From: a virus
DNA length: 11,086 nucleotides
UHGV virus genome: UHGV-0145753
Strand: one strand, 5' to 3'
Of the stretch, positions 10-11,086 are shown piece by piece (positions within the stretch are counted from its first letter, which is position 1; every line of letters begins with the position of its first letter). A model generated the notes under the pieces. That model was given only the letters and a program-made list of their open reading frames with translations. It ran no database searches and was not told the DNA's origin. The position numbers and the translations under genes are program-made.

Positions 10-43
10 GTCTCGTGGGCTCGGAGATGTGTATAAGAGACAG
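10..43 (+). other. Illumina Nextera read-2 transposase adapter (sequencing artefact, not biological)
   Basis: Positions 10-43 read GTCTCGTGGGCTCGGAGATGTGTATAAGAGACAG, which matches from memory the 34-nt Nextera read-2 adapter ending in the 19-bp Tn5 mosaic end. Positions 1-9 (tgcagcgta) are probably index or adapter-dimer derived; unverified. Confidence 0.88.
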
Positions 44-3000
44 CCTGTAGAACAGCCCGATTCGGCTCAGTCAATGGCGCGCTGCCGCATGCTGCTGGCG
101 CTCGGGGAGGGGGAGTTTGCTGGTGGCCTGGATGCGACCCGGATATTCCTGGACGGTACGCCGTTGGGAAACCCCGACGGAACGATGAATTTTGAAAATG
201 TGTCATGGGATTTCCGGCCTGGCACACAGACCCAGACACCAATACCGGGATTCCCTGCAGTCGAGAATGAAACTACGGTTGGGGTATCGCTGACAAAGGC
301 CACACCATGGACCCGCGCACTGAGTAACACCCAGATTGACGCGGTGCTGGTTCGTATTGGCATCCCTGGGTTACAGCAGCAGGAAAACGATGGGGATATT
401 GTCGGCACTACGGTTCAGTACCATATTGATCTGGCGGTGGACGGTGGCGCTTACTCGACAGTCATGACGAAAACCGTCACAGAGAAGCTCAGCTCGCTCT
501 ATGAACTAACCCACCGTATTAATCTTCCCAAAGCCAGCACTGGCTGGCAAATTCGAGTGGTGCGTGACACCGATGACAGCACCAGCCAGATGCTGCAGAA
601 CAAAACGCAGGTGCAAGCGATTACTGAAGTGATCGATGCTCGCCTGCGATATCCACACACAGCGCTGCTGTACGTGTCCTTTAACGCAAAGTCATTCAAC
701 AACATCCCTAAGATTTCCTGCATGCCGAAGGGGCGCATCATCCGAATCCCTTCGAACTATGATCCAATAGCGCGGACTTATAGCGGAACATGGGACGGGA
801 CGTTTAAATGGGGCTGGACGAATAACCCGGCGTGGATTTGGTTCGATGTTCTGACTGAGCCGCGCTTCGGCCTTGGGCGCCGCGTGACGCCAGAAATGCT
901 CGATAAGTGGGAGCTCTATCGCATCGCCCAGCGCTGCGACCAGAAGGTACCCGACGGGAAAGGCGGAAGCGGTACCGAGCCACGCTTCATGTTTGACGTT
1001 TACATCCAGTCCCAGGCTGATGCCTGGCAGGTGATTAAAGATATTGCCGCGGGCTTCAACGGAATGACTTTCTGGGGCAACAACATGTTCAATGTTGTCT
1101 CTGACATGCCGGCGGACACTACGAAGTTGCAGATCCTCACTCGCGCATCAGTGGTGGGTAAGCCGGTGTACTCGAGTGGCAGTGAGAAAAACCGATTCTC
1201 CAGCGCGCTGATTAACTTCAGCGATCCGGATAACCACTACCAGGACCGCACCACGGCAGTGATGTTTCCGGAACTGGTAAGGCAGTTCAAGTTTAAGCAG
1301 ACACAAATCACTGCGATCGGTTGTACGCGTGAGAGCGAGGCGCAGCGGCGTGGCGGGTGGGCGGGGTATTCCAACTCCCTTGACCGCATTATCACGCTTC
1401 AGACTGGACTTGATGGCTTTGTATTTGTGCCGGGCACCGTATTTGCGTTTGCAGATGAACGCCTGTCAGGGCGCGTTTACGGCGGGCGTATCACCGGGTA
1501 TAACGCTGGTCTTAAGGCCGTGACCATTGACCGGGGCACCAGTGCGGTGGCGGGCGATACGCTGATGATTCGCACCCAGGGCGGTACCGTTGAAAGCCGG
1601 GTGATACAGGCCGTAAATGGCACGCAGCTGATCCTGTCCACGCCGTTCACGGCGGCGCCATTACCTAATGCCGTATTCGTCATTGATGCTGGTCAGCTGC
1701 GCCTGCAGTATTTCCGGGTAACGAACCTAAAATTTGATGATGAGGAAAACACCTTCACCATTACCGGTGCGGAGTATAACGCGTCGAAATACGACGCCGT
1801 TGATAACAACGCTCGCCTCGATACTCCTCCGATAAGCCTGATTCCGACCGGGCTAGTTAACCAGCCGACCAACATCGTGGTATCGAGCTATGATGCGGTT
1901 CGCCAGGGGCAACGCGTGGCCACGCTAACCGCCTCGTGGGATGCGCCAATTGATAAAGACGGCAAACTGCAGTCGGACGTAATAGCGTACCGGGCACAGT
2001 GGAAGCGCGGAAATAACGAATGGGTAAACGTGCCTGAAACCGGGTTACGAAATATCGAAGTGCCTGGCATTTTCGAGGGCGATTACCTTGTGCGCGTCCG
2101 TGCGATTAACTCTGGGGGAGCGTCCAGCCTTTGGGCCACGTCTGCGTTGACCCATCTTACCGGCCGCACCGGTGAAGTGCCCAAACCTGTCGGACTAACA
2201 GCAACAGAGGATGTTGTATTTGGGATCAACATTACATGGGGTTTCCCCGCAGATACCGCCGACACCCTGAGCACGGAACTGCAATACAGCGCTTCAGTCG
2301 ATGGGGCAAATCCAATGCTTTTGGCGTCGGTGCCGTATCCTCAGAAACTCTATCAGCAGATGGGGCTGAAGGCAGGGCAGGAATTCTGGTACCGGGCACG
2401 GCTGGTTGACCGCATCGGGAATCAGAGCGACTGGACAGACTGGGTGCGCGGGCAGGCCAGCATCGATGTTTCCGATATCACCGATGCAATCCTGGAGGAC
2501 ATGAAAGGCTCCGATACGTTCAAAGATCTGATCGAGAACGCGGTGGACAGCAACGAAAAAATTGCTGGCATGGCTAACGATATCAAACAGGCTAACGACG
2601 AACTGGAGCAGCAAGCGAAAGATATCGCCAAAAATGCCCAGGACGTAGGGAAGGTTCAGACCAGCGTTAATGAGCTTTCCAGCACGGTCGGGAATGTTTC
2701 GTCTTCACTCAGTCAGCTTGAGCAGACCGTTGCGACGGCTGATACCGCCCTGGGCCAGCGAATCGACAACATCAGCGTTTCTATGGACGGCATGACGGGC
2801 GGGGTGAAGAACTCTGCAATTGCGATAATCCAGGCAAACCTCGCTCAGGTGGCCACGCGTAAAACCCTTTCTGCATCGGTCGCCGGCAACAGCGCGAATC
2901 TGGACCGTATTGATGAGGTGATTGTCAACGACAGGGAGGCAACGGCGCGCTCGCTGCTGAGCCTGCAGACGGACGTTAACGGCAACAAGGCATCCATCAA

Positions 3001-3571
3001 CAGCCTGAACCAGACGTTCTCCGATTACCAGCAGGCTATGGCCACGCAGGTAAACAGCATCACGGCGACGGTGAACGGGCATACCTCAGCCATCACAACC
3101 AACGCTCAGGCTATAGCGAACGTAAACGGCGACCTCAGCGCGATGTACAACATCAAAGTTGGTGTCTCCAGCAACGGGCAGTATTACGCCGCGGGGATGG
3201 GTATCGGCGTGGAGAATACGCCATCAGGCATGCAGTCACAGGTAATCTTCCTGGCAGACCGTTTCGCCGTGACTACTATGGTCGGCGGGACTGTAACACT
3301 GCCGTTCGTTATCCAGAATGGCCAGGCCATTATCAGGGATACAGTCATTGGCGACGGGACCATAAGCAATGCAAAAATTGGCAATTACATCCAGTCGAAC
3401 AATTATGTTGCCGGCTCTGTTGGCTGGAAACTGGATAAGTCCGGGACGTTTGAGAACTACGGTTCGACAGCTGGGGAGGGAGCCATGAAGCAGACCAACC
3501 AGACAATCAGCGTCAAGGATGGCAACAACGTTCTGAGAGTGCAGGTTGGCCGATTAACGGGGGTGTTCTGA
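44..3571 (+). CDS. J: Phage host specificity / tail tip protein J (lambda gpJ family), 5'-truncated at the contig edge
   Basis: Long ORF whose translation aligns by eye with lambda gpJ from near its N-terminus (e.g. RIPSNYDPIARTYSGTWDGTF versus lambda LQVPSNYNPQTRQYSGIWDGTF). The ATG at 29 lies inside the adapter, so genuine coding sequence starts at 44 in the same frame and a few N-terminal codons are missing. Stop TGA at 3569-3571. Confidence 0.9.
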   Translation, partial: PVEQPDSAQSMARCRMLLALGEGEFAGGLDATRIFLDGTPLGNPDGTMNFENVSWDFRPGTQTQTPIPGFPAVENETTVGVSLTKATPWTRALSNTQIDAVLVRIGIPGLQQQENDGDIVGTTVQYHIDLAVDGGAYSTVMTKTVTEKLSSLYELTHRINLPKASTGWQIRVVRDTDDSTSQMLQNKTQVQAITEVIDARLRYPHTALLYVSFNAKSFNNIPKISCMPKGRIIRIPSNYDPIARTYSGTWDGTFKWGWTNNPAWIWFDVLTEPRFGLGRRVTPEMLDKWELYRIAQRCDQKVPDGKGGSGTEPRFMFDVYIQSQADAWQVIKDIAAGFNGMTFWGNNMFNVVSDMPADTTKLQILTRASVVGKPVYSSGSEKNRFSSALINFSDPDNHYQDRTTAVMFPELVRQFKFKQTQITAIGCTRESEAQRRGGWAGYSNSLDRIITLQTGLDGFVFVPGTVFAFADERLSGRVYGGRITGYNAGLKAVTIDRGTSAVAGDTLMIRTQGGTVESRVIQAVNGTQLILSTPFTAAPLPNAVFVIDAGQLRLQYFRVTNLKFDDEENTFTITGAEYNASKYDAVDNNARLDTPPISLIPTGLVNQPTNIVVSSYDAVRQGQRVATLTASWDAPIDKDGKLQSDVIAYRAQWKRGNNEWVNVPETGLRNIEVPGIFEGDYLVRVRAINSGGASSLWATSALTHLTGRTGEVPKPVGLTATEDVVFGINITWGFPADTADTLSTELQYSASVDGANPMLLASVPYPQKLYQQMGLKAGQEFWYRARLVDRIGNQSDWTDWVRGQASIDVSDITDAILEDMKGSDTFKDLIENAVDSNEKIAGMANDIKQANDELEQQAKDIAKNAQDVGKVQTSVNELSSTVGNVSSSLSQLEQTVATADTALGQRIDNISVSMDGMTGGVKNSAIAIIQANLAQVATRKTLSASVAGNSANLDRIDEVIVNDREATARSLLSLQTDVNGNKASINSLNQTFSDYQQAMATQVNSITATVNGHTSAITTNAQAIANVNGDLSAMYNIKVGVSSNGQYYAAGMGIGVENTPSGMQSQVIFLADRFAVTTMVGGTVTLPFVIQNGQAIIRDTVIGDGTISNAKIGNYIQSNNYVAGSVGWKLDKSGTFENYGSTAGEGAMKQTNQTISVKDGNNVLRVQVGRLTGVF

Positions 3572-3572
3572 T

Positions 3573-3875
3573 ATGGCTTATGGAATACAGACCTGGGATG
3601 CTTCGGGAAACCCCAACAACTACGGAATCAAGCCCGTTTCCGTTGTTGGACGTATACAACTTGCCGCCGGACAAAACTCCGGCAGCTGGTCTTTCACTGT
3701 ACCCTCAGGAATGAAGGTCGGTTTTGCGCTCTCACTTGATGAAGGAGGTAACAGCGTAGGGAGGAGCATTGTCGCGTCAGGGAACACAATAACCGTAACC
3801 GCAGCCTCTTCTGTGGGCCTGGGTAATTACCCGGCCTCTAAATGTGAGGTGGTCGTTTTCATGGAGAAAGCATAA
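3573..3875 (+). CDS. Hypothetical phage protein (tail-region accessory), 100 aa
   Basis: ORF starts 2 nt after the J stop with a G-rich Shine-Dalgarno-like stretch upstream; its stop overlaps the next start (TAATG). Shares a WDASG motif with the next ORF. Confidence 0.6.
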   Translation: MAYGIQTWDASGNPNNYGIKPVSVVGRIQLAAGQNSGSWSFTVPSGMKVGFALSLDEGGNSVGRSIVASGNTITVTAASSVGLGNYPASKCEVVVFMEKA

Positions 3876-4549
3876 TGGCCGAATTTGGCGCGATGATATT
3901 AATGGATAACGGGAATCCCTTTGTAACGCCACAATCAACGCCTTTCTGTCTTTACGGGAAGTATACCTTCAATTCATCCGCGAATGGCAGTTCTCAGCAG
4001 GTTGCTCAAAATATCGCTTTAAACGCTGATTACCCAGTGATGGTTTTTATCAAAACCACCAATACAGCACAGCCCACTCCGGTTATGTCTTACAGGAACG
4101 GCGGTAATGTGTATGTTGCTGGTGTTAATCCCTACAACCAAAGTTTCACTTTAACGGCGTACGTTTTTGCCATATTCCCGCAGATATTACCGAAATGGGG
4201 TTTGGCAATATGGGATGCGAGCGGAAAGCTTGTGTTAACTAATGAGTCCCGTGTGCTATCAGACCTGCAGACGGTTGGCACGCCTGGTGCAAACGGCGGG
4301 ATAAATATTGACCAGACGCTGAGCGGGTCATGGGCCGTTGCACCTGCTCAGTTGGGTCAGACCATCATTGTGAATAATTCAACCCGGCCTCCGACTATCT
4401 ACACGATAAATGCTTATTCTTCATGCAGGTTTGACGGGGCCAATACGAGGATAAACGCAGGGGGGACCTCCACTGGGGCAGGTTCACCTGGAGGGGGAAC
4501 GAATACTGGCATTTCATTAACCGCCATAAATACAGCGGCCTATGATTGA
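3875..4549 (+). CDS. Hypothetical phage protein, 224 aa, apparently two copies of the domain seen in the preceding ORF plus a Gly/Thr/Asn-rich C-terminus
   Basis: Start is translationally coupled to the upstream stop (TAATG). Contains AIWDASGKLVL mid-protein and a second weaker DNGNP-type motif near the N-terminus, resembling QTWDASGNP in the 100-aa ORF. Confidence 0.62.
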   Translation: MAEFGAMILMDNGNPFVTPQSTPFCLYGKYTFNSSANGSSQQVAQNIALNADYPVMVFIKTTNTAQPTPVMSYRNGGNVYVAGVNPYNQSFTLTAYVFAIFPQILPKWGLAIWDASGKLVLTNESRVLSDLQTVGTPGANGGINIDQTLSGSWAVAPAQLGQTIIVNNSTRPPTIYTINAYSSCRFDGANTRINAGGTSTGAGSPGGGTNTGISLTAINTAAYD

Positions 4550-4571
4550 TTGATCGTTTTTAGCGATCAAT
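4548..4571. promoter_or_regulatory. AT-rich palindrome ATTGATCG-N7-CGATCAAT with clustered GATC sites; candidate operator or promoter region for the downstream lipoprotein moron
   Basis: Perfect 8-bp inverted repeat (4549-4556 and 4564-4571) immediately after the stop of the 224-aa ORF. A third TTGATC copy lies at 4582-4587, giving three GATC sites within about 35 bp. No T-tract follows, so it is not a typical terminator. Confidence 0.3.
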
Positions 4572-4660
4572 AACATAATATTGATCTATCCAATCAATTA
4601 TACCCACCAGAATTGTATTGTTATCGTCTAAGATACTGAATTCCTCTGGATACTATCAAA

Positions 4661-4894
4661 ATGAGAAAACTGATTATCTGCATGGCAGGCGCTGTCATGC
4701 TTACAGGATGCGCTGGCGTAATTGAGAAACAGGAACCAGTTTGCAGCGGCACTGCAATCGTTGGCGGTCAGGAAACTACGGTTCAGATTTACGGTGTGCG
4801 TAAACAAAACAACCAGACGCAGTACCGGGCTGGATATCCTTTCAGCTGGCGCTGGGTAAGTGCGAATACATTTACCGAAACAACCTGCAAATAA
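4661..4894 (+). CDS. Small secreted lipoprotein (77 aa); position and size consistent with a Cor-like superinfection-exclusion lipoprotein
   Basis: N-terminus MRKLIICMAGAVMLTGCAG has a hydrophobic signal sequence followed by an L-T-G-C lipobox. The gene sits between J and the side tail fibre with its own AT-rich upstream region and a downstream terminator (moron-like). The Cor assignment rests on context only. Confidence 0.65.
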   Translation: MRKLIICMAGAVMLTGCAGVIEKQEPVCSGTAIVGGQETTVQIYGVRKQNNQTQYRAGYPFSWRWVSANTFTETTCK

Positions 4895-4915
4895 CCCACT
4901 ACGCTTAAACATAAA

Positions 4916-4938
4916 CCTCGCTCCGGCGGGGTTTTTTT
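4916..4938 (+). terminator. Putative rho-independent terminator after the lipoprotein gene
   Basis: GC-rich imperfect hairpin (cctcgctccggcgggg) immediately followed by a run of seven T (4932-4938). Confidence 0.5.
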
Positions 4939-4954
4939 ATTGCCTGGAGAAAAT

Positions 4955-5896
4955 ATGCTTTATAACACCGGCACCATCGCCATTAATGGAAATACCGCCA
5001 CCGGGACGGGTACAAACTGGACGGCACCGGCCAGCCAGGTCCGCGCTGGCCAGACGATTATCGTGATGTCTAACCCGGTGCAGCTGTTTCAGATTTCATC
5101 CGTGAACAGCGCCACGTCAATGACGGTAACGCCTGCTGCATCACCGGCGCTGAGCGGCCAGAAGTACGGCATTCTGGTATCAGACAATATCTCGGTTGAT
5201 GGGCTGGCGCTGGCCATGTCGCAGCTTATCAAGGAGTATGACGAGAATATTGGTGCGTGGGAGACGTTCGCCACAACCTCAGCCAACCAGAACATTACCG
5301 TTACGATCAATGGCACCAGTTTATCAATCCCGGCTCTTGGGAAATTACTGCAGAAGGGGAGCAACGGAGCTTTGCCGGTTAATCAAGGTGGTACCGGCGC
5401 AACGAATGCCGCAGACGCTCGCACAAACCTTGGTTTGGGAGAAGGTTCGGTGTTACCCGTTGGTGTGCCTGTTCCGTGGCCTGCAGCCACTCCGCCAACA
5501 GGCTGGCTGAAATGCAATGGTGCGGCTTTTTCTGCTGAAGAATACCCAGAACTGGCAAAGGCTTACCCGACAAATAAATTGCCTGATTTACGTGGTGAGT
5601 TTATGCGTGGCTGGGATGATGGAAGAGGCGTTGATAGTGGCAGGGGGATTCTCACTGCGCAATCTCATGGTATGCCGTCTATTTCAGGAACGTTTAATGG
5701 TCTTTTTGCTGTTAAACAAACAAATGGTTTAGGTGGTGTTTCTGTAGCAAAAAGTACAAATACTGAAACTTTATCTACTTCATCTGGATCAGGTTCCGTG
5801 TTTGATTACACGTTTAATGTCAGCGGTTCGACTCCGGTATCACCAGAACTTCGTCCGCGTAATATTGCATTTAACTATATCGTGAGGGCCGCATAA
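4955..5896 (+). CDS. Side tail fiber protein: constant N-terminal part (to about 5430) fused to the currently expressed variable C-terminal part carrying a phage tail-collar-like domain
   Basis: GGAG Shine-Dalgarno 7 nt upstream of ATG 4955 (the ORF-track start at 4940 is a TTG). The N-terminus MLYNTGTIAINGNTATGTGTNW is fibre-like, and the C-terminal motifs (PTGWLKCNGAAFSAEEYPELAKAY, LPDLRGEFMRGWDDGRG) are typical of tail-collar domains. The left inversion site lies in-frame at 5418-5443. Confidence 0.85.
   Translation: MLYNTGTIAINGNTATGTGTNWTAPASQVRAGQTIIVMSNPVQLFQISSVNSATSMTVTPAASPALSGQKYGILVSDNISVDGLALAMSQLIKEYDENIGAWETFATTSANQNITVTINGTSLSIPALGKLLQKGSNGALPVNQGGTGATNAADARTNLGLGEGSVLPVGVPVPWPAATPPTGWLKCNGAAFSAEEYPELAKAYPTNKLPDLRGEFMRGWDDGRGVDSGRGILTAQSHGMPSISGTFNGLFAVKQTNGLGGVSVAKSTNTETLSTSSGSGSVFDYTFNVSGSTPVSPELRPRNIAFNYIVRAA
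5418..5443. repeat. Left recombination site of the invertible segment (gix/hix/pix-like), crossover dinucleotide TT at 5430-5431
   Basis: CTCGCACAAACC-TT-GGTTTGGGAGAA. Positions 5430-5444 are the exact reverse complement of 7254-7268. The half-site resembles the Hin/Gin-type consensus (TTCTC..AAACC) as I recall it. It is embedded in-frame in the tail-fibre gene (codons N-L-G-L-G-E). Confidence 0.7.
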
Positions 5897-6498
5897 TGAA
5901 TAATGCAGAATTAAATAGTGAATTGATTGCTACTGCGGCAGGGAATATTACCGTTTATAACTATGATTGTGAAACACGAGAATATATTTCCACATCAACT
6001 GAATATCTTGCTGTGGGTGTCGGTATCCCGGCATGTTCCTGTCTGGATACACCAGGTATACATAAGGCGGGTTATGCAATATGCCGCTCTGTGGATTTAA
6101 ATTCATGGGAATATGTGCCAGACCATCGAGGTGAAATTGTCTATAGCACCGAAACGGGAGATACCAAAGAAATCACAGTGCCAGGCGACTATCCCGAAAA
6201 TACAACCACTATCGCCCCGTTAACGCCATACGATAAATGGGATGGTGAGAAATGGGTGACCGATATTGAGGCACAGCATAGCGCCGCAGTAGACGCGGCA
6301 GAAGCGCATCGCCAATCGCGGATTGATGCTGCAATGGCTTCCATCAGTCTGATTCAGCTGAAATTGCAGGCCGGACGTAAACTGACGCAGGCAGAAACAA
6401 CCCGGCTTAACGCTGTGCTGGATTACATTGACGCGGTGGTGGCAACAGATACCAGCACCGCGCCGGATGTCATCTGGCCTGAACTACCGGAGGCGTAG
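5896..6498 (+). CDS. tfa: Tail fiber assembly protein (Tfa chaperone) for the currently expressed fibre variant
   Basis: Start overlaps the fibre stop (TAATG) with a GAGGG Shine-Dalgarno upstream. C-terminal motif LDYIDAVVATDTSTAPDVIWPELP is typical of the conserved Tfa C-terminus. Confidence 0.8.
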   Translation: MNNAELNSELIATAAGNITVYNYDCETREYISTSTEYLAVGVGIPACSCLDTPGIHKAGYAICRSVDLNSWEYVPDHRGEIVYSTETGDTKEITVPGDYPENTTTIAPLTPYDKWDGEKWVTDIEAQHSAAVDAAEAHRQSRIDAAMASISLIQLKLQAGRKLTQAETTRLNAVLDYIDAVVATDTSTAPDVIWPELPEA

Positions 6499-6913
6499 GC
6501 CATTCAATATCTGGAGCACTGGAAATATCGACCATTTCCAGTGCATCCAGATAATCCAGCCACAAATTATATTGTGCCAGTTCCTCACCTTTCAGACGAC
6601 CGATAGCTGCTTTACCAGGCCATTGCTTACCGTTCATGTATTCGTTGGCATGGTCAATTCTCGACTTTTTCTCTGAGTCAGCCGCAGCAAGTTGTTCTTT
6701 ATGCGTAGGTGACGGAAGATCTACCCAGCAAGGCAACCCATCATCACCAATGCCACGCATTTTACCCTCAGGAGCGTTTCCCATGAAAACCAGTGCATCT
6801 TCAGCATCTATATTGATGCCGTCTGACGGCCATGTGCCAGCAGTTAAATAATCATATTTCAGTGCCACAAGATAAAAAGCATTTTCCGTCGGGCTGAATA
6901 CATAGTCGACCAT
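6470..6913 (-). CDS. tfa: Alternative tail fiber assembly protein (Tfa-alt), in the silent orientation
   Basis: Conserved Tfa-type C-terminus (LWLDYLDALEMVDISSAPDIEWPTPP). Preferred start is the ATG at 6913, which overlaps the Sv-alt stop in a TAATG junction mirroring the + strand arrangement and has a GGGAG upstream; the ORF-track start at 6931 would add 6 aa. Its 3' end overlaps the + strand tfa convergently by 29 bp. Confidence 0.72.
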   Translation of the reverse strand: MVDYVFSPTENAFYLVALKYDYLTAGTWPSDGINIDAEDALVFMGNAPEGKMRGIGDDGLPCWVDLPSPTHKEQLAAADSEKKSRIDHANEYMNGKQWPGKAAIGRLKGEELAQYNLWLDYLDALEMVDISSAPDIEWPTPPVVQAR

Positions 6914-7268
6914 TAATATCCCACTCCCCATACTGCCACTGTTGAATTAGATTTCGTGTATGCGCAAGCGGCTTTGAATTTGACCCGGTCAACAATCGCT
7001 GCGCTAACAAAAGGGGCTCCATTAGTCGCGTAGATCACAGAATTGACCAGCGAAGGATTGATGGAAAGGCAAGCATTAGGAAAGGCAACCGGCCATGAGC
7101 CATCAACAACGACCATATTACCGTCGGTAGATTGCGGCACTGATAGCGTCTTCCACTGAAGCAATGCTGTTCGTTGTACTCCACCAATTAATACTGGAAT
7201 AGTGATGTTACCTGCACTGCTGGCTAATGCTGTCGCAGCAGGCATTTTCGCTGCTTCTCCCAAACCAA
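6913..7268 (-). CDS. Alternative tail-fibre variable C-terminal cassette (Sv-alt), promoterless and startless; it would be fused in-frame to the constant part after inversion
   Basis: The minus-strand reading frame is open from the right inversion site to a stop at 6913-6915. Across the site it encodes V-G-L-G-E, matching L-G-L-G-E at the left site in the same codon phase, so recombination at the central dinucleotide keeps the frame. The ORF-track start at 7287 is a TTG beyond the crossover. Confidence 0.62.
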
Positions 7269-7280
7269 CCTTTTTTATAA
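7255..7280. repeat. Right recombination site of the invertible segment (gix/hix/pix-like), crossover dinucleotide AA at 7267-7268
   Basis: TTCTCCCAAACC-AA-CCTTTTTTATAA. Its left half and centre are the exact reverse complement of the left site's right half and centre. It lies about 60 bp upstream of the invertase start. Confidence 0.7.
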
Positions 7281-7339
7281 CCATCAAAAATCTGGTGATG
7301 CTTCGCCGTTTCTCCTGTTTTCATAACAGGAGAAATCCC

Positions 7340-7888
7340 ATGATTTACGGTTATGCCCGAGTATCAACAAACCACCAGGACACTGAATTGCAACTAACGG
7401 CGCTCAAGTCAGCGGGTTGTGAGAAAATTTTTGAAGAGCATGCCAGCGGGAGGAAATCGAATCGGCCGGTTCTAAAACGGCTGATCGCCACTATGCAGCC
7501 GGGGGATGAACTGGTGGTCTGGAAGCTGGACAGGATAGGCCGCAACGTTCTGCATGCGCTGTTGATGTTCCAGCAGTTACAGGAAAAGGGTATCAACTTC
7601 CGCAGTATTACCGATGGCGTGGATCTCAAAACAGCCAGCGGCCGCTATAACTTTCGTAACATCCTTTCCGCAGCACAATATGAATCTGATCTTAATAGCG
7701 AACGTACCTTAGCAGGGCTGGCCGTAGCCAGGGCAAAAGGGCGAGTTGGTGGTCGCAGGCCTAAGTTCACGGATGAGCAATGGCGGGAAATGGGGGAGCG
7801 GATGGCAACCGGTGAATCACGACAAAGCGTATCAAAAACGTATGGAGTAGGGCTCTCAACTCTGTATAAAAAGTTTCCAGCTAGCTGA
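7340..7888 (+). CDS. Site-specific DNA invertase, serine recombinase of the Hin/Gin/Cin/Pin family
   Basis: AGGAGA Shine-Dalgarno 7 nt upstream of ATG 7340. N-terminus MIYGYARVSTNHQDTELQ has the catalytic Ser at position 9 (Gin: MLIGYVRVSTNDQNTDLQ) and the C-terminal helix-turn-helix ends GLSTLYKKFPAS (Gin: ALSTLYKKHPAK). About 182 aa; the upstream in-frame extension in the ORF track (from 7202) overlaps the inversion site and is not used. Confidence 0.93.
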   Translation: MIYGYARVSTNHQDTELQLTALKSAGCEKIFEEHASGRKSNRPVLKRLIATMQPGDELVVWKLDRIGRNVLHALLMFQQLQEKGINFRSITDGVDLKTASGRYNFRNILSAAQYESDLNSERTLAGLAVARAKGRVGGRRPKFTDEQWREMGERMATGESRQSVSKTYGVGLSTLYKKFPAS

Positions 7889-7909
7889 TAACGGGAAAGA
7901 AACAGAGAA

Positions 7910-7950
7910 GGGCACAAATATTGTGTACTTTAATGTGCCCTTTAATTTAT
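7910..7950 (+). terminator. Putative terminator hairpin after the invertase gene
   Basis: Perfect 7-bp stem GGGCACA (7910-7916) and TGTGCCC (7934-7940) followed by a T-rich tract (tttaatttatt). The loop is long (17 nt) and contains a TGTGTAC motif, so this could instead be a protein-binding site. Confidence 0.4.
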
Positions 7951-8113
7951 TGATTGGTGGTTGAATTGTCCGTAACTTTTTGATTTAAGTGCAAATTTCT
8001 AATAAATTAGAACACTTTCTTAAATTGTCATTTGGCATATTACGAACAATTCCGCGTAAAAACGTTCTGTTACGCTAAACCCTTATCCAGCAGGCTTTCA
8101 AGGATGTAAACCA

Positions 8114-8136
8114 TAACACTCTGCGAACTAGTGTTA
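8114..8136. repeat. Inverted repeat TAACACT-N9-AGTGTTA; candidate att core-type site pair or operator
   Basis: Perfect 7-bp arms with a 9-bp spacer, inside the AT-rich intergenic region between invertase and integrase and about 30 bp upstream of the TGTGTAC repeats. Confidence 0.3.
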
Positions 8137-8164
8137 CATTGCGTGTAGCTTTGAGTGGGCAACT

Positions 8165-8207
8165 TTGTGTACACTTTTGTGTACCCAAAAACAAAAATGT
8201 GTACCCA
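8165..8207 (+). repeat. Three direct copies of a TGTGTAC(C) motif just upstream of the integrase start; candidate integrase arm-type or regulator binding sites
   Basis: TGTGTAC at 8166-8172 (within the palindrome GTGTACAC), 8178-8184 and 8198-8204. The last two are TGTGTACCCA 10-mers spaced 20 bp apart. A fourth TGTGTAC lies at 7922-7928 in the hairpin loop after the invertase. Confidence 0.45.
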
Positions 8208-8211
8208 TTCA

Positions 8212-9405
8212 ATGATCACCGACACAAAGCTCAGGAAGGCGCTCGGCAAGAAAAGAGATGATATCGAGATTATTTCTGATTCGCACGGGCTCAACGCCAG
8301 AATCAGCCAGGCCGGAAAAATATCATTTTTCTATCGGTATCGCTGGGCCGGTAAAGCGGTAAAACTCAATGTTGGTGATTATCCTGCAATGAGTATCACC
8401 CAGGCAAGAGAGCGTCGCCAACAATTCAGAAACTGGTTAACTGAGGGACTGGATCCGCGAGAGCAGGTGAAGCTGGATAAGCAGACCCGACAGGAAGCGA
8501 TGTCCGTTGCCGAAGCGTTCAATTACTGGATTGAAAGGCACTGTATCGCTAACGGGCTAGTTAAAGTCGATTACTATCGCCAGGTGTTTGAGAAACATAT
8601 CGCCGAACCGATGAAGAATGTCAAAGTCGATAACACAGCGAAAATGCACTGGATCAACGTCTTCGATTCTATAGAAAGCAGGGTGATGGCTCATTACATG
8701 CTTTCGCTGTGCAAACGGGCGTTTAGGTTCTGCGTTAACAGAAGTGTGATCGCCTCAAACCCACTCGAGGGATTACTGCCATCTGATGTCGGGCAAAAGC
8801 CTAAAAAGAGAACTCGCAGGATGGACGATGACGATCTGCGCAAAATCTATCAGTGGTTGAAAAGCCATATGTCGATAGAGTCCGTTTTCCTGGTGAAATT
8901 TATTATGCTTACCGGATGCCGTACGGCTGAGATTCGACTTAGTGAGAGATCATGGTTTCGATTGGATGATAATGAGTGGGTCGTGCCTGCGGGCAGTTAT
9001 AAAACTCGGGTACATATTAGAAGGGGGCTCTCAGACGCCGCCGTTAACTTGGTCAGAAATCACCTCAAGAAAATAAACACCAATCACCTGGTGACTTCAC
9101 AACGTAAAATTGATGGCGGGATCAAAGATTCGCCCGTTCATTCACCTGTGGCATCCAATTACGCCCGTTCTATTTGGAATGGAACAGGTATGGCAGAGTG
9201 GTCGCTTCATGATATGAGGCGGACGATAGCCACAAATCTCTCTGAGTTAGGTTGCCCGCCGCACGTAATTGAAAAGCTACTTGGTCATCAGATGGTCGGT
9301 GTAATGGCTCACTACAATCTGCACGACTACATCGATGACCAAAAACACTGGCTCCACGTTTGGCAGAGCCATCTTGAAAGTATCATTGGTGAGCCATTCA
9401 GTTAA
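8212..9405 (+). CDS. int: Tyrosine site-specific integrase, P4-type (N-terminal arm-binding domain plus C-terminal catalytic domain)
   Basis: N-terminus [17 protein letters not shown]...[23 protein letters not shown]...[18 protein letters not shown] fits the P4-integrase arm-binding pattern. The C-terminus has the catalytic signature ([19 protein letters not shown]...AHY). Start chosen at ATG 8212; the ORF track begins at an upstream GTG (8155) that would put the repeats inside the coding sequence. No strong Shine-Dalgarno at either. Confidence 0.9.
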
Positions 9406-9598
9406 TTGGCTGTTTCACACCTTCCCACTCTTTGACTGACTCCGACTTCCAGCGGTTTGGGTTACCAGGAAAATCAGGAGCAGGGAACGGCTTCGCAAAA
9501 CCCCGCGGCATAGTTTCTGTGCTTTGCCATGACCAAAGGGTTTTACGTGAGATTTTGTATCGACTGGTCAGGTCTGACGTCAGCAAAATATCATCCAT
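9398..9598 (-). CDS. AlpA/Xis-like small helix-turn-helix protein (putative excisionase or recombination directionality factor, or transcriptional regulator)
   Basis: 66 aa with GGAG Shine-Dalgarno 9 nt upstream. The pattern ...[11 protein letters not shown]...FPAP..........W....VKEW resembles AlpA (..RATIYDWL..ATFPKK......W.EAEIDEWL). It is convergent with int and overlaps its 3' end by 8 bp. Confidence 0.55.
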
Positions 9599-9609
9599 CG
9601 TTTTTCTCC

Positions 9610-9630
9610 AATGGCCCGTACTGGGCCATT
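9610..9630. promoter_or_regulatory. Perfect palindrome AATGGCCC-N5-GGGCCATT just upstream of the AlpA-like gene; candidate operator or mRNA hairpin
   Basis: 8-bp arms with a 5-nt spacer in the 45-bp gap between the hypothetical gene ending at 9644 and the AlpA-like start at 9598. It is not followed by a U-run on the coding (minus) strand. Confidence 0.35.
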
Positions 9631-9643
9631 TATAAAAGTAATA

Positions 9644-9886
9644 TCAACTCACCTGACCCGGCAGCGCTCGCAATCTGCGCATGCCTGTCATCGCCGTGGC
9701 CACGTAACTCGCCTTGCGGTTCACTACCTCCACCCAGACCTTCACACCTTCAACTCTCACCGTGTACGTTTCCTTCATCTTGCTGCGTCCGTAGTCGCCG
9801 TAGCGTTCGTGATGAGTGGCCAGCGCGATGTCGCATGCCTGACGCGCTATCGGGGATTGCTGATTGCCGCGGTTAATCAGTTTCAT
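9644..9886 (-). CDS. Hypothetical protein, 80 aa
   Basis: The ATG at 9886 overlaps the stop of the upstream gene (ATGA), indicating translational coupling within a minus-strand operon. No recognisable motifs. Confidence 0.45.
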   Translation of the reverse strand: MKLINRGNQQSPIARQACDIALATHHERYGDYGRSKMKETYTVRVEGVKVWVEVVNRKASYVATAMTGMRRLRALPGQVS

Positions 9887-10077
9887 GCTTCACCGCCATC
9901 TGGGTTGGATGATTGACGGAAAATTGCTCGGGACGGCGACCAATCGCAATATGTATCAGTTTCGGTATGCCCGAAAATTGTCTTACAGCGGCGGATATGG
10001 GCGCAGTCGCCGCAAGTCTTACCCTTCGGGAGTTTCATTTTGTCGGGGTCTGCCGGGTTATAATTCAGCTCAGTCAT
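9883..10077 (-). CDS. Hypothetical small Cys-containing protein, 65 aa (possible zinc-binding)
   Basis: Preferred start is the ATG at 10077, with GGAGG 8 nt upstream, overlapping the stop of the upstream gene (ATGACTGA); the ORF track extends it to 10221 in a region that overlaps that gene. Contains C-x2-C-x5-C-x12-C (CGDCAHIRRC...YC). Confidence 0.45.
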   Translation of the reverse strand: MTELNYNPADPDKMKLPKGKTCGDCAHIRRCKTIFGHTETDTYCDWSPSRAIFRQSSNPDGGEA

Positions 10078-10414
10078 TCCAGGCCTCCAGCTCGTTCTGA
10101 ATTTCCTCGTCGATCTCGTCATTGGTGGCATCATGATTGAGATATGTGAGAGCTTCTTTCCGATACTGTGCGCGGCGTTCGCTGTACCATGCTGAAAACT
10201 CAGGTGACCAGCCTCGACCATTACCCTGAAAATCTACAAGAGCGTTGTCCTCTGCCATGCGCTCAACCATGCAGTCGGCAGTTGTCAGGGCGCACTCACG
10301 GATATACCGGCGTAGATCCCGCTTGCGCCAGTACGGGCTATATTTCGAGTCGCAACGACCTTTAAATTCGACGGCCCAGCGACGGATGCAACGTGCATTT
10401 AATGATTTGCTCAT
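10070..10414 (-). CDS. Hypothetical protein, 114 aa, with an acidic C-terminus
   Basis: ORF in the same minus-strand operon, with its stop overlapping the next start. A GC-rich hairpin lies just upstream of its start. No recognisable family. Confidence 0.5.
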   Translation of the reverse strand: MSKSLNARCIRRWAVEFKGRCDSKYSPYWRKRDLRRYIRECALTTADCMVERMAEDNALVDFQGNGRGWSPEFSAWYSERRAQYRKEALTYLNHDATNDEIDEEIQNELEAWND

Positions 10415-10421
10415 CTCGTTA

Positions 10422-10443
10422 CCGGGAGGGCGAACCCTCCCGC
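10422..10443. promoter_or_regulatory. GC-rich hairpin CGGGAGGG-cgaa-CCCTCCCG in a 34-bp intergenic gap
   Basis: Perfect 8-bp stem with a 4-nt loop between the partial upstream ORF (stop 10449-10451) and the start at 10414. No U-run on either strand, so it is not a classical terminator. Confidence 0.35.
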
Positions 10444-10448
10444 CTCCC

Positions 10449-11086
10449 TCAGCCCACGTATTCCGGTTTCATATCTGCCAGGGTAATGCTGAACTTATCG
10501 TGCAGCTCGTCGCCCAGATGACGTTTCGCCGTTGCCAGAACTCGCTCAACTTCCCCGAAACGCGCTGCTGCATCCGGTTCGTCCGGAGACGGTAGGGAGT
10601 TGATCGCGGCCTCAACCTTGTTACGTGAATCAACCAGGTAATAGCGTTTTACTGCTTTGTTCTTCAGTTCGGTGAACAGGGCTGAACCCAGTGTGGCCTT
10701 CGCACTTTCGATATCAGCGCGTAGTGCTTTGGCGCTATCAACATCCTGTGCGGCATCGATGCGTTCGCGGAAACCATCTGCCAGTGAGTCGATGTTTCCT
10801 GATTTTTCCTGCTTGCTCTGCGTGGTTGTTATGGTGTCACCTGAAATTTCAGACAGGCTAACGTGTTGCGCCGGAGCAGGGTTAACTTCTCGCTCTTCAC
10901 GGCGATCATCCAGTTCATCAGGGGTATACACGCCGAGAATTACATCCGGGCAGAACAGTCTCGCCCAACGTTTCACGGCGAGATAAGCGAGCTGCTGGCG
11001 AGGGTCGTCAGCCCAAAGCGTTGAATTACGAGTCCTGGCCTGTGCCAGTAGCAGGTCAAGTTCCCTCGGTTGATCTTCACCTTTCA
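10449..11086 (-). CDS. Hypothetical protein, 5'-partial (reading frame open to the window end)
   Basis: The minus-strand frame has no stop from 11086 down to the stop at 10449-10451. The ORF-track start at 10976 is a GTG and the frame continues upstream (...LWADDPRQQLAYLA), so the gene begins beyond the window. Charged, Ala-rich, helical-looking sequence; function not recognised. Confidence 0.5.
   Translation of the reverse strand, partial: KGEDQPRELDLLLAQARTRNSTLWADDPRQQLAYLAVKRWARLFCPDVILGVYTPDELDDRREEREVNPAPAQHVSLSEISGDTITTTQSKQEKSGNIDSLADGFRERIDAAQDVDSAKALRADIESAKATLGSALFTELKNKAVKRYYLVDSRNKVEAAINSLPSPDEPDAAARFGEVERVLATAKRHLGDELHDKFSITLADMKPEYVG

Follow-up and report, generated by a model that had tools for sequence, protein, structure and literature searches.

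The gap between pin and int in a mosaic lambdoid phage is almost certainly a phi80-type attP in virion gene order

The attP site and integrase of the lambdoid phage phi80 have been characterised since the 1980s and serve as routine tools (CRIM plasmids), and the phage itself, which integrates at yciI, is a notorious contaminant in laboratories. P4-type elements, which offer a second point of comparison, usually target the 3' ends of tRNA genes, and P4 Int is known to repress its own promoter. The attB used by phi80, with the sequence gtgaaaccatttaagaaagtgttctga, is located inside the yciI 3' end (PMC13449921, citing Leong et al. 1985). The phi80 prophage has been located at yciI (PMC5727415), att80 has been placed between kch and yciI (PMC11148124), and plasmids carrying phi80 attP integrate using phi80 Int (PMC2532685).

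We analysed 11,086 nucleotides of a viral genome (UHGV-0145753), referred to here as the window, in which a lambdoid tail module directly precedes an integrase gene. A preliminary description had reported about 320 bp of AT-rich non-coding DNA without tRNA-like sequence between the invertase stop and the integrase start, and had proposed it as a candidate attP. The ends of the open reading frames 7340-7888 and 8212-9405 place the gap at 7889-8211, directly after the pin stop codon (TGA, 7886-7888). It is 323 bp long and has a GC content of 35.9%, compared with 51% for the whole window (P arm, 0.308; core, 0.235), in agreement with that description. The absence of tRNA-like sequence was likewise confirmed: ARAGORN called neither a tRNA nor a tmRNA across the window, and an Rfam search of 7600-8500 gave nothing beyond a chance match of 20.4 bits, below the gathering score of 34. 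The sole open reading frame lying mostly within the gap, on the minus strand at 8070-8294 (74 aa), had no PHROG match.

The gap is identical at 323/323 positions to the phi80 pinL-int intergenic region (JX871397), in which attP is annotated. It is also identical at 323/323 positions to mEpX1 and at 322/323 to mEp237 and HK225 (99.7-100%). Among the annotations of the phi80 record in this stretch are an IHF site, an 'attP core' and pI, given as a possible promoter of int; the mEp237 record carries a prophage attachment site at 8009-8025. The candidate attP of the preliminary description thus coincides with an annotated one, and we conclude that 7889-8211 is almost certainly the attachment site of a lambdoid phage of the phi80 type, with tail fibre, pin, attP, int and xis following one another as in phage DNA that is not integrated (virion or vegetative). 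No result spoke against this assignment. Tail-attP-int is the normal virion order, and a phi80-type attP at this place is an already known, ordinary feature. The window shares with phi80 (Lula) att80 the whole gap, the 17-bp core, the attB at the yciI 3' end, the annotated IHF site, the pin-attP-int-xis order and the first 789 nt of int (100% nucleotide identity over 8212-9000). It differs from phi80 in pin (96.4% identical to phi80 pinL, and 99.8% to pin of mEp237), in the 3' end of int (94.3% over 9001-9405) and in xis, which has the same position as phi80 xis and only 82.4% nucleotide identity. The phage in the window is therefore a mosaic relative of phi80. Features of the gap and of the genes flanking it are collected in table 1.

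Table 1. Features of the attP region and flanking genes, in window coordinates.
Feature	Position	Strand	Basis or remark
pin, serine DNA invertase, last gene of the tail-fibre module	7340-7888	+	Pfam Resolvase (E 3.6e-39), HTH_7
Hairpin, 10-bp stem and 17-nt loop, followed by TTTAATTTATT	7907-7943	+	just past the pin stop
TGTGTAC, candidate arm-type Int site, P arm	7922-7928	+	motif
IHF consensus match AATCAATAAATTA, P arm	7943-7955	-	consensus; without annotation in the phi80 record
Predicted IHF site AATCAAAAAGTTA, P arm	7973-7985	-	consensus; corresponds to phi80 JX871397 protein_bind 'IHF' 24584-24596
attP common core AGAACACTTTCTTAAAT, crossover region	8009-8025	.	attP/attB/attL/attR comparison; mEp237 feature
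ATTGTCATT, candidate core-type Int site across the right core boundary	8024-8032	+	conservation
GCGTAAAAACGTTCTGTTACGC, P'-arm block, candidate accessory-protein site	8054-8075	.	6-bp inverted repeat, 10-bp spacer
Three direct TGTGTAC, candidate arm-type Int sites, P' arm	8166-8172, 8178-8184, 8198-8204	+	motif, conservation
int, tyrosine integrase with P4-type N-terminal arm-binding domain	8212-9405	+	Arm-DNA-bind_3 PF13356 (E 1.5e-18), Phage_integrase PF00589 (E 7.8e-17)
xis, excisionase, convergent with int, 8-nt overlap of the int 3' end	9398-9598	-	phrog_1553 (E 1.1e-32)

The common core was delimited by comparing four sites: attP of the window, attB of E. coli MG1655, whose sequence agrees with the published one, and attL and attR of DH10B/ECCRA-119. 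All four share 17 bp. The attP context reads ...taaatt AGAACACTTTCTTAAAT tgtcatt... and the MG1655 attB context ...ctattc AGAACACTTTCTTAAAT ggtttca...; attL joins the left flank of attB to the right flank of attP, and attR shows the reverse arrangement. Immediately past the core, attP and attB differ by a T/G mismatch at 8026, followed by GT common to both. The 'attP core' feature of the phi80 GenBank record (JX871397 24623-24639) corresponds to window positions 8012-8028; it is shifted 3 nt to the right of the 17-bp core and takes in the mismatched position.

Searches of 5,426 complete E. coli genomes recovered the two halves of the site. With 7600-8500 as query, the int side was matched in 178 genomes, and in all 25 records listed (25 of 178) the match starts at window position 8006, beside kch. 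The pin side was matched over at least 80% of its length in 69 genomes and, among the matches listed, ends at 8028, beside yciI. Lysogens therefore match rightwards from about 8006-8009 at kch and leftwards up to 8028 at yciI, which is the short match flanking related prophages that the preliminary description had suggested looking for. In DH10B and ECCRA-119 the int-side junction adjoins kch and represents attL. The pin-side junction adjoins yciI and tonB and represents attR; in ECCRA-119 pin lies beside yciI. In ECCRA-119, 47.3 kb separate the two junctions, which have the same orientation, so they belong to one prophage. Host chromosomal sequence in the interval had been regarded in advance as an argument against an attP; what we found within 7889-8211 was the 17-bp crossover core alone, with no second terminus, and this supports the attP reading rather than refuting it.

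The 17-mer by itself is non-specific. It had 63 matches in 596 Gb of GTDB species genomes, and chance predicts about 69 (2 x 596e9 / 4^17, our own arithmetic), so most of these matches are random. Informative ones were those at attB in E. coli and in Shigella (two), in a yciI-like 3' end of Vibrio sp. HA2012 and in an attL-like remnant of Phytobacter described below.

The host gene targeted is yciI, at its 3' end, in a region that the annotated flanks of attL and attR place between kch and tonB. yciI is on the minus strand, and the core takes in the codons at its end (F K K V F) plus one base, the first, of the stop codon. This stop is TGA in the host, and at the same position the P arm of the phage supplies TAA (TTA at 8007-8009 on the phage strand). 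The YciI proteins encoded at attB and attR are identical, and the RefSeq annotation of the lysogen includes yciI at full length. The phage thus brings a replacement stop codon that leaves YciI unchanged in lysogens.

One pin-side junction was found elsewhere. E. coli NCTC9040 (NZ_LR134247.1 2119723-2120411) carries an identical pin, P arm and 16 of the 17 core bases; next to them, in place of yciI, comes a type I restriction R-subunit gene that lacks its N-terminal part. Tail genes of the adjacent prophage are of a different kind (YmfQ family, gp53-like). The junction could reflect integration at a secondary site or a rearrangement.

We considered other origins for a contiguous pin-attP-int arrangement. 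Tandem prophage copies (a polylysogen) or an excised circle, as opposed to packaged DNA, would give exactly the same sequence, and an 11-kb window looks the same for all of these states. We regard such a source as improbable: pin, attP and int are not contiguous in any of the 5,426 complete E. coli genomes, and among IMG/VR sequences a contiguous attP 29-mer occurs only in HK225, mEp237 and mEpX1. The question bears in any case on the physical state of the source and not on the identity of the interval, which would still be attP. The preliminary description had listed a virion, circular or excised genome among the possible explanations, and the order agrees with the normal vegetative map, in which the site falls in the middle of the linear phi80 genome.

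The same description had also allowed that two different elements abut here. In such a case the end of a lambdoid tail module would adjoin a separate P4-like integrative island, with the gap a composite of their termini. The P4-type N-terminal domain of the integrase, which is common in genomic islands, and the mosaicism of the window against any single record would fit such a composite. The pin-gap-int stretch is, however, uninterrupted in phi80, mEp237, HK225 and mEpX1, four infectious phages whose sequences were obtained independently, pin and int form the two ends of a single 47-kb prophage in lysogens, and the gap contains neither a second terminus nor host DNA beyond the core. We therefore give this explanation hardly any credence. 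In some phages, genome ends can coincide with AT-rich non-coding DNA that separates modules, but a junction of genome ends (cos or terminal repeat) or a point where the assembly was circularised, the other sense of the 'circular-junction' proposed earlier, is practically excluded because the site lies 24.6 kb into the linear 46.15-kb phi80 record (23.3 kb of 44.4 kb for the corresponding region in mEp237), and prophage junctions fall at 8009-8025.

Returning to the gap as a phi80-type attP, we examined the anatomy of its arms. The motif TGTGTAC has four copies in the window, all on the plus strand and all within the gap (starting at 7922, 8166, 8178 and 8198); four copies were reached in 0 of 200 shuffles. 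The three P' copies lie 8-46 bp upstream of the int ATG. Position, repetition and conservation make these repeats candidate arm-type Int sites, the conservation data coming from the P' copies, as the available P arms are all at least 99% identical. The IHF consensus WATCAANNNNTTR has two matches in the whole window, both on the P arm. On the P' arm, the block at 8054-8075 is a symmetric element, GCGTAA-N10-TTACGC, with an internal AACGTT.

The hairpin that follows pin has a predicted folding energy of -14.4 kcal/mol (z -1.9), only weakly better than shuffled sequences, and its loop contains the P-arm TGTGTAC. It may be the pin terminator. A terminator scan made no call there because the loop is longer than 8 nt, and the consensus scan of 7700-8400 as a whole gave no sigma-70-like promoter and no canonical terminator. 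The -10 element of the 'pI possible promoter' in the phi80 record corresponds to window positions 8170-8175, underneath the P' repeats.

The right-hand limit of the gap depends on the int start, which is annotated in three ways on identical sequence: GTG 8155 (mEp237), ATG 8197 (phi80 GenBank) and ATG 8212 (RefSeq). Accordingly, the length of the gap varies between 266 and 323 bp. ATG 8212 is invariant in all 14 sequences of the alignment described below, and in the protein started there the Pfam arm domain extends from residue 2. ATG 8197 falls within the third TGTGTAC repeat.

For conservation among diverged relatives, we aligned 14 sequences with MAFFT: 12 attL-side prophage sequences from IMG/VR, the window and the Phytobacter remnant. 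The integrases of the aligned IMG/VR prophages are 79-87% identical to the window Int, and their P' arms include a 1-nt indel. The nonamer ATTGTCATT was invariant (14/14), even where the rest of the core varies. Within 8054-8075, AAAACG (8059-8064) and GTTAC (8069-8073) were invariant, and GTTACAT (8133-8139) was invariant or nearly so. The stretch 8164-8184, which holds two of the repeats, was invariant except at 8180, so that motif 2 reads GCGTAC or GAGTAC in relatives. GTAC at 8201-8204 was invariant, including in the Phytobacter remnant. Positions 8079-8112 were poorly conserved, unlike the P' repeats, ATTGTCATT and ATG 8212.

The core of the IMG/VR prophages lies about 215 nt upstream of int and reads TTAAAATACTTT(C/T)TT(G/A)TAT. 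Its minus strand still encodes ...KKVF-stop, so the core appears to co-vary with host codons. This suggests that relatives with 79-87% identical Int use the same target, the 3' end of yciI, in other enterobacteria. More broadly, phi80-type integrases might form a lineage that tracks the yciI 3' end across enterobacterial genera, with the core co-varying with host codons, ATTGTCATT and the three GTAC repeats fixed, and the repeats perhaps serving as an Int-autoregulated operator over the int promoter. This proposal, drawn from the alignment, is one for which we see the case for and against as evenly balanced.

The remnant in Phytobacter diazotrophicus DSM 17806 lies on the minus strand. In it, tgtcatt follows an exact phi80-type core; the P' arm has diverged and contains three GTAC(A/C)C repeats, and int ends abruptly after about 40 codons. 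Just past the break is an open reading frame resembling a transposase C-terminus, and an IS insertion is thus a possible cause of the truncation.

Compared with lambda, the window attP appears to work alike, with a short core and arms of about 100-190 bp; the repeated arm-type motifs and IHF sites of lambda have candidate counterparts here. Lambda Int is a heterobivalent tyrosine recombinase, as the window Int probably is, and both phages encode an excisionase nearby and have attP flanked by the tail genes and int in the virion order. The sites themselves have no sequence relationship, and the N-terminal domain of the window Int is of the Arm-DNA-bind_3 type. Furthermore, lambda int is transcribed towards attP, whereas int in the window reads away from it and converges on xis. 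The lambda attB is intergenic (gal-bio), whereas the attB used here overlaps the 3' end of a protein gene whose stop codon the phage restores.

With the P4 integrase, the window Int has in common the combination of an N-terminal Arm-DNA-bind_3 domain (formerly DUF4102) and a tyrosine recombinase domain. In both cases int adjoins attP and reads away from it, and repeats lie directly upstream of int, where a promoter is expected. In contrast to P4-type elements, integration is directed to a protein gene, yciI, and tRNA-like sequence is absent; the window moreover belongs to a full lambdoid phage and not to a satellite or island. The preliminary description had likened the integrase to P4-type enzymes with a promoter overlapping attP. 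The domain and the direction of int bear out the likeness; a promoter in attP is labelled 'possible' in the phi80 record, and our consensus scan gave none.

These parallels outline how the site may work. The junctions indicate that integration splits the phage at the core, carrying int to the kch side (attL) and pin with the tail genes to the yciI side (attR). By analogy with lambda, Int would be heterobivalent, its N-terminal Arm-DNA-bind_3 domain binding the TGTGTAC motifs (one on P, three on P') and its catalytic domain the core. The intasome would form as IHF bends the P arm, at 7943-7955 and at 7973-7985, and Xis would direct excision. Int bound to the P' repeats over the putative int promoter may also autoregulate int, as in P4; this is the weakest step of the proposed mechanism because the consensus promoter scan was empty.

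The genes around the site place it in a lambdoid context. To its left, the window is a lambdoid tail module with J (29-3571), two small open reading frames, cor, a Collar-domain tail-fibre gene, tail-fibre assembly genes and then pin. To its right, the int product was assigned to phrog_1 integrase (E 1.3e-59), has Arm-DNA-bind_3 over residues 2-87 and contains the motifs TGCR, HDMRR, LGH and AHY. A search of phage records related the window to phi80, mEp237, HK225 and mEpX1 over approximately 2350-9890; J before 2350 and the region past 9890 are not phi80-like, and the best coverage of the window by any one phage record is at most 47%. For the left part of the window, coverage stays below 80% in every complete E. 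coli genome. For the right part (8009-11086), 99% of the query is covered in 19 E. coli genomes, at an identity of at most 92%.

Inside int the sequence crosses a mosaic boundary. From 100% over 8212-9000, identity to phi80, mEp237 and prophages of E. coli falls across 9001-9900 to 94% in the int 3' end, 82% in xis and 76-78% in the next open reading frame. Judged by nucleotide identity, the integration module of the window is a hybrid.

Upstream of attP the window carries an intact Pin-invertible tail-fibre segment, bounded by 20-nt inverted repeats at 5425-5444 and 7254-7273 that are 90% complementary and about 1.8 kb apart; phi80 has only pseudogene remnants in its place. The genes of the segment are 4940-5896 (+), 5896-6498 (+), 6470-6931 (-) and 6913-7287 (-). 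One orientation provides the 3' part of the tail-fibre gene and an assembly gene, and the other an alternative fibre C-terminus (Gp53-like_C) and a second assembly gene.

The results carry little weight as a discovery, and their practical use is for annotation: they allow the window to be described as a phi80-like temperate phage with its genes in virion order, with the core pinned to 8009-8025 and a predicted E. coli integration site at the 3' end of yciI, beside tonB.

Finally, we noticed a fragment 100% identical to 8022-8500 (the P' arm and the 5' part of int) on an Enterobacter asburiae IncFIB VIM plasmid (NZ_CP129515.1), where it lies among IS26/IS50 elements and other phage genes. We rejected it as an informative att site, as it is an IS-scrambled phage fragment that looks like a prophage remnant.
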